This document shows, piece after piece, positions 43,091-50,286 of a DNA stretch of 64,000 nt. How positions within the stretch are numbered: the stretch's first letter is position 1; each line of letters opens with the position of its first letter. A program made the position numbers and the translations under genes. The stretch spans positions 112,406,001 to 112,470,000 of the forward strand of contig NC_091993.1 in NCBI RefSeq assembly GCF_044704955.1. The letters run 5' to 3'. This DNA is from Pristiophorus japonicus. Taxonomy: Eukaryota. Below the pieces are notes generated by a model that saw nothing but the letters and a program-made list of their open reading frames with translations, made no database searches and was not told where the DNA came from.

Positions 43091-46000
43091 TCCCTGACCA
43101 GGTCGAGTTTCATAGAAACATAGAAACATAGAAAATAGGTGCAGGAGTAGGCCATTCGGCCCTTCTAGCCTGCATCGCCATTCAATGAGTTCATGGCTGA
43201 ACATGCAACTTCAGTATCCCATTCCTGCTTTCTCGCCATACCCCTTGATCCCCCTAGTAGTAAGGACCTCATCTAACTCCTTTTTGAATATATTTAGTGA
43301 ATTGGCCTCAACAACTTTCTGTGGTAGAGAATTCCACAGGTTCACCACTCTCTCGGTCCTAAATGGCTTACCCCTTATCCTTAGACTGTGACCCCTGGTT
43401 CTGGACTTCCCCAACATTGGGAACATTCTTCCTGCATCTAACCTGTCTAAACCCATCAGAATTTTAAACGTTTCTATGAGGTTCTCTCTCATTCTTCTGA
43501 ACTCCAGTGAATACAAGCCCAGTTGATCCAGTCTTTCTTGATAGGTCAGTCCCGCCATCCCAGGAATCAGTCTGGTGAACCTTCGCTGCACTCCCTCAAT
43601 AGCAAGAATGTCCTTCCTCAGGTTAGGAGACCAAAACTGTACACAATACTCCAGGTGTGGCCTCACCAATGCCCTGTACAACTGTAGCAACACCTCCCTG
43701 CCCCTGTACTCAAATCCCCTCGCTATGAAGGCCAACATGCCATTTGCTTTCTTAACCGCCTGCTGTACCTACATGCCAACCTTCAATGACTGATGTACCA
43801 TGACACCCAGGTCTAGTTGCACCTCCCCTTTTCCTAATCTGTCACCATTCAGATAATAGTCTGTCTCTCTGTTTTTACCACCAAAGTGGATAACCACACA
43901 TTTATCCACATTATACTTCATCTGCCATGCATTTGCCCACTCACCTAACCTATCCAAGTCACTCTGCAGCCTCATAGCATCCTCCTCGCAGCTCACACTG
44001 CCACCCAACTTAGTGTCATCCGCAAATTTGGAGATACTACATTTAATCCCCTCGTCTAAATCATTAATGTACAGTGTAAACAGCAGGGGCCCCAGCACAG
44101 AACCTTGCGGTACCCCACTAGTCACTGCCTGCCATTCTTAAAAGTCCCCATTTACTCCTACTCTTTGCTTCCTGTCTGACAACCAGTTCTCAATCCATGT
44201 CAGCACACTACCCCCAATCTCATGTGCTTTAACTTTGCACATTAATCTCTTGTGTGGGACCTTGTCGAAAGCCTTCTGAAAGTCCAAATATACCACATCA
44301 ACTGGTTCTCCCTTGTCCACTCTACTGGAAACATTCTCAAAAAATTCCAGAAGATTTGTCAAGCATGATTTCCCTTTCACAAATCCCTGCTGACTTGGAC
44401 CTATCATGTCACCTCTTTCCAAATGCGCTGCTATGACATCCTTAATAATTGATTCCATCATTTTACCCACTACCGATGTCAGGCTGACCGGTCTATAATT
44501 CCCTGTTTTCTCTCTCCCTCCTTTTTTAAAAAGTGGGGTTACATTAGCTACCCTCCACTCGATAAGAACTGATCCAGAGTCAATGGAATGTTGGAAAATG
44601 ACTGTCAATGCATCTGCTATTTCCAAGGCCACCTCCTTAAGTACTCTGGGATGCAGTCCATCAGGCCCTGGGGATTTATCGGCCTTCAATCCCATCAATT
44701 TCCCCGACACAATTTCCCGACTAATACGGATTTCCCTCAGTTCCTCCTCCTTACTAGACCCTCTGACCCCTTTTATATCCGGAAGGTTGTTTGTGTCCTC
44801 CTTAGTGAATACCGAACCAAAGTACTTGTTCAATTGGTCTGCCATTTCTTTGTTCCCCGTTATGACTTCCCCTGAATCTGACTGCAGGGGACCTATGTTT
44901 GTCTTTACTAACCTTTTTCTCTTTACATATCTATAGAAACTTTTGCAATCCGTCTTAATGTTCCCTGCAAGCTTCTTCTCGTACTCCATTTTCCCTGCCC
45001 TAATCAAACCCTTTGTCCTCCTCTGCTGAGTTCTAAATTTCTCCCAGTCCCCGGGTTCGCTGCTATTTCTGGCCAATTTGTATGCCACTTCCTTGGCTTT
45101 AATACTATCCCTGATTTCCCTTGATAGCCACAGTTGAGCCACCTTCCCTTTTTTATTTTTACGTCAGACAGGAATGTACAATTGTTGTAGTTCATCCATG
45201 CGGTCTCTAAATGTCTGCCATTGCCCATCCACAGTCAACCCCTTATGTATCATTCGCCAATCTATCCTAGCCAATTCACGCCTCATACCTTCAAAGTTAC
45301 CCTTCTTTAAGTTCTGGACCATGGTCTCTGAATTAACTGTTTCATTCTCCATCCTAATGCAGAATTCCACCATATTATGGTCACTCTTCCCCAAGGGGCC
45401 TCGTACAATGAGATTGCTAATTAATCCTCTCTCATTACACAACACCCAGTCTAAGATGGCCTCCCCCCTAGTTGGTTCCTCGACATATTGGTCTAGAAAA
45501 TCATCCCTTATGCACTCCAGGAAATCCTCCTCCACCGTATTGCTTCCAGTTTGGTTAGCCCAATCTATGTGCATATTAAAGTCACCCATTCTAACTGCTG
45601 CACCTTTATTGCATGCACCCCTAATTTCCTGTTTGATGCCCTCCCCAACATCACTACTACTGTTTGGAGGTCTGTACACAACTCCCACTAACGTTTTTGC
45701 CCTTTGGTGTTCTGCAGCTCTACCCATATAGATTCCACATCATCCAAGCTATTGCATTAATCTCCTCCTTAACGAGCAATGCTACCCCACCTCCTTTTCC
45801 TTTTATTCTATCCTTCCTGAATGTTGAATACCCCTGGATGTTGAGTTCCCAGCCCTGATCATCCTGGAGCCACGTCTCTGTAATCCCAATCACATCATAT
45901 TTGTTAACATCTATTTGCACAGTTAATTCATCCACCTTATTACAGATACTCCTTGCATTAAGACACAAAGCCTTCAGGCTTGTTTTTTTAACACCCTTTG

Positions 46001-46320
46001 TCCTTTTAGAATTTTGCTGTACAGTGGCCCTTTTTGTTCTTTGCCTTGGGTTTCTCTGCCCTCCACTTTTCCTCATCTCCTTTCTGTCTTTTGCTTTTGC
46101 CTCCTTTTTGTTTCCCTCTGTCTCCCTGCATTGGTTCCCATCCCCCTGCCATATTAGTTTAACTCCTCCCCAACAGCACTAGCAAACACTCTCCCGAGGA
46201 CATTGGTTCCGGTCCTGCCCAGGTGCAGACCGTCCGGTTTGTACTGGTCCCACCTCCCCCAGAACCAGTTCCAATGCCCCAGGAATTTGAATCCCTCCCT
46301 GCTGCACCACTGCTCAAGTC
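43091..46320 (-). mobile_element. CR1 LINE, 5'-truncated: end of ORF1 plus near-complete but broken ORF2 (APE endonuclease and RT)
   Basis: ORFs carry CLNARSI/ITETW, GDFN, SDHN, NYRPVSLTS, YLDFQKAFDKVPH, GVPQGSVLGP and FADDTK. An SGNH-esterase-like ORF1 end (DGLHL) lies near 46220. The (CATAGAAA)n tail is at 43091-43113. Confidence 0.95.
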
Positions 46321-47324: not shown

Positions 47325-48056
47325 ACGGCAAGCGATCCCCAGGTGGGCAGAGGAAACGTTTCAAGGACACCCACATCGCTCCTTGATAAAGTGCAACATC
47401 CCCACTGACACCTGGGAGTCCCTGGCCAAAGACCACCCTAAGTGGAGGAAGAGCATCCGGGAGGGCGCTGAGCACCTCGAGTCTCGTCGCCGAGAGCATG
47501 CAGAAAATTTGGCTAAGATCATGCGTAACTGACCTGACAGGGGAGTAACCACCATGACCCCAAAGTGGTTCTCCCTGGATCAGGAAGGTATATGCTTGCT
47601 TTTTGGAAATAGGAGGTGGGTGGGGTGGCTTGACCCATCCACCTCCACGGAGGTGTGTGGGGGGGCCTGACCCATCCACCTCCATGGCACGAACCTGGTA
47701 TTGCAGTACTTCCAGGAACGGTACTTCCAGGAACGGTGCAGTGGCTCTAGGCCTTTTGGCTAAGAGCATTGGCGCAGAGTGATCCTTGATGTGTGCAAGG
47801 TGACCTCTGGCGTTTGTGATGTGACAAAGAATTGGAACGATTGGCTACGAATTTAAAAAAAAATGCAGAAAACAAGCGCAGGCAGCGGAAAGAGTGTGCG
47901 GCAAACCAGTCCCACCCGCTCTTTCCCTCAACCACTGTCTGTCCCACCTGTGACAGAGACTGTAATTCCCGTATTGGACTGTTCAGCCACCTGAGAACGC
48001 ACTTTGAGAGTGGAAGCAAGTCTTCCTAGATTTTGAGGGACTGCCTATGATGATGA
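47325..48056 (+). mobile_element. RTE-clade LINE 3' end, interrupted by the U1/U2 mosaic element
   Basis: KCNIPTDTWESLAKDHPKWRKSIREGAEHLESRRREHAEN resumes after the insertion as ENKRRQRKEC...CPTCDRDCNSRIGLFSHLRTH. It ends in a (TGA)n tail. Confidence 0.92.
47508..47862 (+). mobile_element. U1/U2 snRNA-derived mosaic retroposon (SINEU-like)
   Basis: Flanked by the TSD ATGCAGAAAA (47498-47507 and 47863-47872), with an A-tail at 47855-47862. Contains TTTGGCTAAGATCA (U2 nt 16-29), a U1 5'-like ACTGACCTGACAGGGGAG...GTGGTTCTCCC, U2 3'-like ACCTGGTATTGCAGTACTTCCAGGAACGG and GGCCTTTTGGCTAAGA. Confidence 0.85.
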
Positions 48057-48057
48057 C

Positions 48058-50286
48058 TCACTTTCCTTGTGAGCACTCTCTAGTTTGGGATCCTGGCTGG
48101 TCCAGGTCCCGTTCGGAGGAGCCGCTGTGGGTGACCTTTCGCTCTTGAGCATTGCCGTGGTGGCGAGTGGGTTTGTGGGCTACGCCTTTTCCACCCGGGT
48201 GGTGGCGAGCATAGGCCCAGTTTACTGTTTCTGGCCCGTGGCGGTTCATGCCTGCGAGGTTAATCTGATCCGAGGCAGGGTATCGCTACCGGTGCCTCTG
48301 CTCTCTGGGGATCGTTTACTCTGCGGCTTGTCTACTTCTGTCAGCTGTGGGGACACTTTATGATGCATCGTTCTGGTCCCGGGGATGCAGGCTACAGCAT
48401 TGGGTAGCCCGCTGGACCTGTATACGACCGTTAGGTGCTCGCCTGCTACATTGGCTGATTGCAATTTGCACCCGACATCGCGCAACACCATTTTGCTCGT
48501 TGCAGCTGGACTTTTACATTGGTTACCAATTTCAAGCAGTTCATTCAAAAATGGTGGATGGCTGGCCTCCTTTAAAATGGCCTTACTATTTTTACCCCAA
48601 TCATCTTTCTTGCGTGGAACCACGTGTCGTTGCTCCATTAGCGCTGCACCTCATAGTTTGGACGCCATCTTTTCCCTGTCCATGATGTCAACTGCCGTGA
48701 TCTTCTTTCCCAGGGGATTCTGCCACTAAAACTGGGAAGGTGCATTCGGGTCGTCGTGATGAGCAGTCTGTGCCTCGGGTGTTGCGCGGATCTGCCTGGT
48801 CCAACCGAAGGTGGGGGCTTGCTCTGCCCCGGAGCACGGGGAATGTCGTTTGTTGGAGGGATGAATCTTCCCCATCCATCTTCTTCCAAGTAGCATTGAT
48901 CCATCACCTGAAACAATCCACAATGGTAAATTGTGCACCGCGCCATCATGGGATACACTTACATCCGCACTACCAACAACTGATATCAGTTCCTTGGTGT
49001 AGGTGCGCAGCTTTGCCGGAACCGGGACCAGCTTGGGTCGTTCATCTTGATCATTCCATAGCCTCTCAAAGGTTTCCTGGCTCATTACTGGCCCCCGCGT
49101 CCACGTCCATGAAGACTGGAACGCCATTTATCTTGACTTCCATTATCACTGGAAGACAATCTGTGGTGCAGGTAGATACTCCATACATTTCGCCCTGGGA
49201 CTGAGTTGCCTCGCTAGCCATCTCCTCGTAATCCGCGCTGGATTCACAGCCATCTGCTGACTTCTCTTCCACATGGTGAGTCACAGCTCTTTTGCACATT
49301 CGCTGGGGCTGGCCCTTTGTGCTGCAGCCTTTGCACACATAGTCTCTGAACCGACACTGATGAGCCCTGTGATTACCTCTGCAACGCCAGCATGGTGCTA
49401 CTCGACTTACTTTTGCACCCCTTGGCTGACTCTGAGTTAAAGGACTCGGGGGTCTGTACGCTCTGCCCTGGGCAGATTCAGGTTCAACAGTTCTGCCTGT
49501 GAAAGGCGCCATTCTATTTACAGTACTTTCCGGGTTTGAGTCCCGAGAGTGAATCATCATCTGCTTGGAGCTGCAGCTTGAGGTCATGAACGCCTGGCTG
49601 ATGCTGATGGCTTTCTGCAAGGTGACGGTGGTTTCGGCAGACAGTAGCCTGTGAAGAAGGGCCTCATGACTGATGCCAATTATGAAGAAGTCCCGCAACA
49701 CATTGGCGAGGGATGCACCGAATTCACATGGTCCTGCCAACCTCCTGAGGTCGGCAGCGTACATCTGGCCCTCGGGGGGGCGGTGTGTATAAAATCGATG
49801 CCTGGCCGTGAGGATGCTCTCCTTCGGTTTGAGTTGGTCCTGAATTGGCACTTTCAGCTCCTCGATTAACTTGGTCGTTGTTGTCTCTGGTGCAAGCAAG
49901 TCCCTGACGAGGCCGTAGACCGCGGGCCCACAACTTGTCAACAGGATAGCTCTGCGCTTATCTGCCAGCGTGGCCAGATCATCGCCTACCAGGTCGTTTG
50001 CTAAGAAATTTTGGTCGAGCCGCTCCGGAAAGGCTTCCCAATCTTCACCCTGAGAACTTTTCTAATGCACCAATGTTAGTCATTTTTACGTGAAAGTTTG
50101 TAATCTCGTCGCCAGTTGTTATGTCTTTAATACTATTATAAATAACTCCACGAGCTTGGTGGGCAGCCTGTTATGCTGGTCCCTGCACACCTATGCAGGT
50201 GATCCTCAAGTCTCCCACCACAGTGCCCTCTGGCGGCACATCTTATGTGACTATACAGTTAGTATACATGGTCTACATACATGACA
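48058..50286 (-). mobile_element. Truncated Gypsy LTR retrotransposon (5' LTR, PBS, gag, protease)
   Basis: LTR TG...CA at 50286-50117. PBS TGGCGACGAG at 50114-50105 is complementary to a tRNA-Ser 3' end. gag ORF 49066..49941 has the knuckle CWRCRGNHRAHQC, and the protease reads VKINGVPVFMDVDAGAS. No RT, integrase or 3' LTR is visible. Confidence 0.9.

Follow-up and report, generated by a model that had tools for sequence, protein, structure and literature searches.

A young U2/U1-derived SINE family in Pristiophorus japonicus that shares its U2 target site with a Keno-like LINE and is probably expressed from copies in U2 genes

The window, a stretch of 64,000 nucleotides of Pristiophorus japonicus DNA, carries at 47508-47862 a retroposon assembled from pieces of the U2 and U1 small nuclear RNAs. 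The element belongs to a young U2/U1 SINE family whose U2 insertion site is also that of an intact Keno-like LINE. From the genomic sequences we consider it probable that this LINE copies the family and that transcription starts from copies residing in U2 genes. The U2-gene-resident copies would then be the sources, using the U2 promoter. This part of the reading we hold with similar, fairly good confidence, and it provides a candidate answer to the question how SINEU-type elements are transcribed.

An earlier sequence-only reading had described a 355-bp insert with a perfect 10-bp target-site duplication (TSD) and an A-tail that splits an RTE open reading frame, and each of these features was found at 47508-47862, with the TSD at 47498-47507 and 47863-47872. 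The RTE-like frame of the host resumes beyond the insert; we take the host LINE to be an RTE from its motifs. The features are as follows.

47325..48056, + strand: host, the 3' part of an RTE-like LINE that lacks its 5' portion, interrupted by the insert
47498..47507, + strand: 5' TSD, 10 bp (direct repeat match)
47508..47527, + strand: U2 head, U2 nt 16-35 (18/20 against the genome's own U2 gene)
47528..47584, + strand: U1 nt 3-57, 5' end and stem-loop I (44/57 against the genome's U1 gene)
47596..47608, + strand: Sm-site-like T tract, U2 nt 96-108 (12/13, p 0.025)
47612..47646, + strand: hairpin 1 from U2 stem-loop III (28/38 against U2 112-147; perfect 13-bp stem)
47649..47683, + strand: hairpin 2, duplicate of stem-loop III (18/23 against U2 124-145)
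47693..47741, + strand: U2 stem-loop IV region (U2 153-186), including 15 bp duplicated in tandem (33/39)
47746..47768, + strand: second U2 stem-loop I, U2 7-29 (21/23 against the genome's U2)
47767..47854, + strand: unique tail, homologous to the tail of family X, an older relative (33/44, p 0.001)
47855..47862, + strand: A-tail
47863..47872, + strand: 3' TSD, copy of 47498-47507

Because matches of the insert to the Rfam covariance models, which the sequence-only reading had proposed as a check, stayed below threshold (U2 20.2 and 17.8 bits, U1 17.0 bits, E 0.12-0.68), the modules were aligned to this genome's own U1 and U2 genes, and these alignments were significant. Their p values come from shuffle tests on segments picked after inspection and lie at 0.001-0.005 unless noted otherwise. 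A test of the whole element, performed on the family majority, gave scores of 104 for U2 (element 1-234), 64 for U1 3-57 and 38 for the second U2 7-29, with null maxima of 36 (U2) and 41 (U1) in 2,000 simulated sequences each. A Prion_pknot match in Rfam on the G-rich hairpins was rejected as chance.

Most of the modules named in the sequence-only reading were thus recovered, including the U1 5' end with stem-loop I, the Sm-site-like segment, both stem-loop III-like hairpins and the second U2 stem-loop I. The start at U2 nt 16-29 was correct in that the element does open with a U2 head, but the true start of the element is U2 nt 1, and the first 15 nt are missing in this copy. Stem-loop IV was equally present, but its 15-bp duplication is private to the locus, occurring in 2 of 30 copies, both with the flanks of the window locus. 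A supposed U1 stem-loop II-like segment proved to be a chance resemblance (p 0.70-0.82), and the modules are not randomly shuffled and interleaved: the 5' two-thirds are colinear with U2, with U1 standing in for U2 ~36-87. Bases that pair with the branch point are altered in the U2 head of this copy, as are the loop and the splice-site-pairing bases of its U1 module, the stem of which is intact in the predicted fold. The leading A of the Sm-like tract is gone in the subfamily of the window copy (A) and present in subfamily B and family X. The unique tail matched neither U1, U2 nor the Keno ends (p 0.14-0.77); a 12-nt stretch of it may resemble U6.

The element is far from single-copy, since a 28-mer from the A-type tail has 2,402 exact matches genome-wide (control 0). 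Exact tail matches also numbered 200 for subfamily B, 557 for family X and 220 for Keno, again with controls of 0. A DNA search with the element returned 2,147 candidates; 40 of these were scored, and the 30 copies retrieved, including one duplicate of the window locus, are 92.3-99.7% identical to their majority. That duplicate, at G000:C1765:23549-23922 on a small contig, is near-identical to the window locus and shares its flanks and 15-bp duplication; it probably represents the second haplotype of the locus or a duplication made in assembly. The window element, which has lost a little of its 5' end, belongs to a young, dispersed, non-coding retroposon family with a unit of ~345 nt plus A-tail. 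Full-length copies begin at U2 nt 1 and consist of U2 1-35 (1-29 identical to U2), U1 3-57, U2 ~96-186 with doubled stem-loop III, U2 7-29, the unique tail and poly(A).

In four SINE samples, 18/29, 28/49 (A), 20/29 (B) and 9/30 (X) copies had recognizable TSDs, with medians of 13-16 bp (13-18 bp for the family). As to target preference, which the sequence-only reading had proposed to check, the host RTE position was hit in 4 of 29 distinct loci among the best-scoring matches. Of 49 position-ordered A copies, 30 begin at U2 nt 1-15 and the other 19 within the body; 25 of 29 B copies start at U2 nt 1-15. Copies also cluster: 7 close pairs (<500 bp) occur among the first 100 matches listed, where 0.04 are expected.

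The heads define subfamilies A, B and C as well as mixtures. Subfamily C retains an intact U2 1-38 head and makes up 10 of 105 near-full copies. Subfamily A is about ten times the size of B and is also young, its best copies being 99.7% identical to the majority. The A-tails of B are longer than those of A (19.5 vs 11, p 2e-8), which makes B the likely younger wave. Family X consists of U2 1-190, U2 7-30/38 and a tail homologous to that of the window element, and it lacks U1. Its old copies are 94-97% identical to the genome's own U2. The second U2 7-29 of the window element is the head of the ancestral 3' module, which in X reaches U2 nt 30-38. From these sequences, X would account for the 3' two-thirds of the element, A and B having exchanged U2 ~36-87 for U1 3-57 and doubled stem-loop III. 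The history may have been that U2 joined with a U2 head and tail to give X, after which capture of the U1 5' end and stem-loop III doubling gave A/B. A stand-alone short element (U2 head plus tail) was not found in 30 X loci.

Thousands of copies, their common structure, TSDs, subfamilies and a relative without U1 support the earlier suggestion of an snRNA-derived SINE family that grew by repeated U1/U2 capture. The opposite reading, in which the copies are independent chimeric U1/U2 retrocopies or a LINE 3' UTR and no self-propagating unit exists, carries a negligible probability. Heads do vary among copies, as repeated template switching would yield, but the internal junctions, the duplication and the tail are identical in thousands of copies, and the subfamilies have diagnostic haplotypes. 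The 3' UTR option, left open in the sequence-only reading, is unsupported: none of 49 position-ordered copies has a LINE upstream, and comparison of the tail with the 3' end of Keno gave no match (p 0.14).

A gap in a U2 tandem array holds a 5.7-kb LINE with an ORF1 of 581 aa (CCHC) and an ORF2 of 1,147 aa in which Pfam identifies APE, RT and zf-RVT domains. Its poly(A) joins U2 nt 38. The published Keno site likewise lies 37 nt into U2 with the same 3' flank (PMC6136364, PMC4640811). ORF2 homologs are Tx1-type, the closest being amphibian (46-49%), followed by fish (38-39%), and proteins of Heterodontus and Scyliorhinus contain fragments homologous to the LINE. The LINE thus appears to be a Keno-like Tx1 element, an assignment based on its site and its Tx1-type homologs. 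Fifteen full copies of ORF2 in the C19 cluster differ by 0-4 aa. This Keno carries its own U2 1-44-like head and is mostly dispersed, with 0 of the first 30 tails listed adjoining an intact U2 gene.

Insertions almost fill the edge of the U2 array at G000:C19:69.62-69.73 Mb (L281-L289, L101, L059): among its 16 promoter units and the final unit, nearly all contain full-length Keno, often in tandem, or B. A second class of U2 genes at G000:C9:111.0-113.8 Mb (L061-L070, L251-L270) is 96% identical to the first and has a different promoter; it is organized in duplicated units of 18-21 kb, and downstream of each unit come a Keno 3' remnant and a copy of U2 38-191.

Comparison of insertion sites indicates that Keno is very probably the partner and mobiliser of the SINE family. 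Exact junctions of poly(A) to U2 nt 38 in true U2 sequence number 57: 29 of Keno, 20 of B, 6 of X, 1 of A type and 1 at a contig end. Thirteen of the 29 Keno junctions are old remnants in duplicated units, where the 6 X junctions also lie. Tail-A-U2 junctions with a more extensive overlap number 22 (control 0), and A-type copies also target the same U2 site inside X copies. Keno has also inserted into Keno heads and into a B head, in each case at position 37/38, although the bases of the B head differ from U2 there; the cut may therefore be guided by the U2 1-28 head. The nick motif RRY|A was present at 23/46 A, 10/20 B, 3/9 X and 3/5 Keno sites vs 17% in a control matched for the -1 and +1 bases, which are partly fixed by the method; five Keno TSDs were within reach.

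Away from U2, a Keno tail is followed by a family member or a U2-like head in 9 of 29 cases (control 1/138), and of 20 other Keno sites, 5 are also SINE sites (control 11/1,500). The strongest hotspot, antisense in Gypsy pol, received 7/30 B, 5/78 A, 1/30 X and 1/30 Keno insertions by the strict motif, and further hotspots were found in CR1, RTE and U2. Taken together, the common U2 site, nick motif, TSD length and off-target hotspots make Keno the likely mobiliser. The Tx1/Keno lead of the sequence-only reading thus failed for the element's own LINE and survives for the enzyme that likely moves it. An additional recurrent insertion site, in a repeat, accounts for 6 of 90 SINE sites (L096, L106, L109, L110, L232, L246).

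It is improbable that the enzyme instead comes from another A-tailed LINE, such as a second Tx1 family, L1 or Utopia. Such a source would fit the absence of tail homology with Keno, and candidates exist: the genome contains a U2-headed Keno relative (81%) in L126 and a Tx1-type ORF in L187, and Utopia has the same U2 3' junction (PMC4640811). Against this, no LINE other than Keno occurs among the 56 resolved U2-site junctions, Keno and the SINE have off-target sites in common, Keno is intact and nearly invariant, and no shark is among the chordate hosts listed for Utopia. The LINE of L126 lies downstream, from ~1810 in element orientation, and that of L187 is another Tx1-type ORF2 end in the first 560 bases; both are possible other partners.

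Eighteen copies, all of subfamily B, begin exactly at U2 +1 behind either of two U2 promoter classes. They merge with nt 1-28 of the host gene and are followed by poly(A) and U2 38 onward (17/18 with the tail end visible). In C1832, 5/5 B units have exactly the same 250 nt upstream as 23 empty units. The main promoter class comprises 255 intact U2 units, ~6% of which carry B. Fifteen of the 18 promoter-linked copies carry the same haplotype, a derived one when compared with A. Across the genome, this haplotype was found 16/18 times in arrays and twice dispersed, with one further truncated dispersed copy. All 30 dispersed B copies examined are 0-7 changes away from promoter-linked ones, and none of them showed 3' transduction of U2 38-191. 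The A-runs of the three dispersed copies with array haplotypes measure 27, 45 and 75, vs a median of 19 and a maximum of 29 in the other 27 (p 0.003). Since array haplotypes appear in a few long-tailed dispersed copies, we read the array copies as seeding dispersed ones. The 20 array B copies may descend from a few insertions spread by array recombination.

Alternatively, the copies in U2 genes could be only a sink, with Keno as mobiliser and the source RNA produced from dispersed copies by neighbouring promoters, introns or an internal promoter. We regard this as unlikely, though well ahead of the other rival readings. No promoter-linked A copy was found among the 18 in the two promoter classes searched, in arrays that are incompletely assembled, and the single A-type copy in U2 sequence (1/57 junctions) has no promoter upstream. 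Most dispersed B copies have a haplotype rare in arrays: 24 of 25 near-full ones differ from the array majority, and the commonest dispersed haplotype has only one match in U2 genes, with a private change. The crocodile SINEU-2 is described with 5' extensions (Kojima 2015, PMC4494074). On the other hand, a sink does not explain why near-full copies of A and B pile up at U2 nt 1-15, why the 5' flanks examined have no common extension outside the hotspots, or why the newest haplotype is almost confined to arrays, with 5'-clipped and long-tailed dispersed copies. An internal Pol III promoter is further disfavoured by the T4-T6 tracts, which would terminate Pol III. The shorter A tails would fit an earlier A wave whose sources are lost or unassembled.

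If the U2-gene copies are indeed the sources, Pol II would start at U2 +1 and read through the SINE. Keno ORF2p would prime on the A-tract and nick at RRY|A sites; a relaxed, poly(A)-based recognition is proposed because SINE and LINE have no tail in common. Reverse transcription would stop at or near +1, giving daughters without promoter. Most daughters would land off target, a few would return to U2 genes as new sources, and array turnover would clear old source copies. The U2-derived heads of A, C, the inner module of X and Keno all end at U2 nt 29-44, near the Keno cut and the stretch duplicated there, which is what head capture from host genes would predict; the heads could be the footprints of such insertions.

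Folding was far better than in shuffled sequences for both a truncated A copy (z -5.4) and a full B copy (z -6.2), and the stem-loop III copies retain perfect or near-perfect 12-13-bp stems despite sequence drift from U2. Among truncated A and B copies, 20/23 begin at nt 116-132 (p 5e-22, for a range chosen after data inspection), shortly after the Sm-like tract, within or immediately before the first arm of hairpin 1. Possible causes are a reverse transcriptase halted by an Sm ring, cleavage of the RNA in its U tract, and fold-back of the cDNA on the hairpin. A broader view, which we advance tentatively and rate somewhat below even, is that snRNA-headed SINEs are parasites of U2 arrays, with sources in ~6% of U2 units. 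They would make snRNA-like RNAs, perhaps with an Sm/snRNP route, as hinted by the point at which most truncated copies end, and would obtain heads by Keno-guided insertion, not template switching. The same rule might hold for crocodilian SINEU heads, making a convergent class.

SINEU elements have been reported only from crocodilians, mostly as old copies, and were tied to Tx1-Mar by common targets, Mariner-N4 (Kojima 2015, PMC4494074). How they are transcribed was left open there, flanking promoters being suggested as for R2; reviews repeat this picture (PMC5381603, PMC5786205), and transcription is called 'not yet demonstrated' in PMC5786205. Like the family described here, SINEU-1, -2 and -3 have U1/U2-derived heads, recurrent U1/U2 additions, partial duplications and poly(A), as well as tandem insertions around a TSD, a Tx1 partner deduced from common targets and no internal promoter. 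In SINEU-2, a U1 5' part is joined to a U2 3' part, and the head of SINEU-3 is 32 bp of U2 (PMC4494074). The shark family has an snRNA head, a unit of <500 bp with poly(A), and recurrent U1/U2 additions when X is compared with A/B/C; no LINE with the same tail was found in the comparison with Keno, and common targets indicate a Tx1 partner.

The differences concern location and partner. Copies in U2 genes are not described in the available account of SINEU, whereas the shark family sits in U2 genes behind the promoter; the partner is Tx1-Mar for SINEU and a U2-targeting Keno-like LINE here; and in place of Mariner-N4 the identified hotspots are Gypsy, CR1, RTE and U2. As judged by the published descriptions, the family works like SINEU but is probably not a member of SINEU-1/2/3. 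Since its modules match the genome's own U1 and U2, its origin is likely independent of crocodilian SINEU. The literature searched contained no shark SINEU, no U2-promoter source model and no Keno-dependent SINE in U2 genes; Repbase and Dfam lay outside the search, so a catalogued shark entry is possible.

Published Keno elements have the same APE-type ORF2, insertion 37 nt into U2 and 3' flank (PMC4640811, PMC6136364). The shark Keno differs from the published description in having its own U2 head, a mostly dispersed distribution and non-autonomous passengers. The closest mechanistic analogue is the R2 SIDE of Drosophila, a non-autonomous element that occupies the target of its LINE within tandemly repeated RNA genes; R2 SIDE and R2/R1 SIDE are co-transcripts of the host rRNA-gene array (Eickbush and Eickbush 2012, PMC3414825). 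For the shark SINE, a comparable position behind the U2 promoter is seen in the DNA. R2 SIDEs are internal deletions of the LINE with its ribozyme and 3' end and are confined to rDNA, whereas the shark family consists of snRNA pieces, lacks a LINE tail, would use a Pol II snRNA gene and is dispersed throughout the genome; it has only the U2 head in common with Keno, unlike an internal-deletion derivative.

The genome thus offers a very young SINEU-like family together with an intact partner LINE and candidate sources with known variants, so transcription, partner and source are directly testable. SINE and LINE compete for U2 gene units. Genome annotation needs care with family X, of which there are at least 557 copies: with 140 bits for U2 in Rfam (L242:1287-1465 and further X loci), they would be taken for U2 genes.

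Ordinary repeats flank the insert in the window. A broken LINE at 43769-46178 (- strand), in which an RT domain was found, is presumably of CR1/L2 type, and the gag/protease fragments at 48726-50061 (- strand) on the other side we take to be Gypsy-like.
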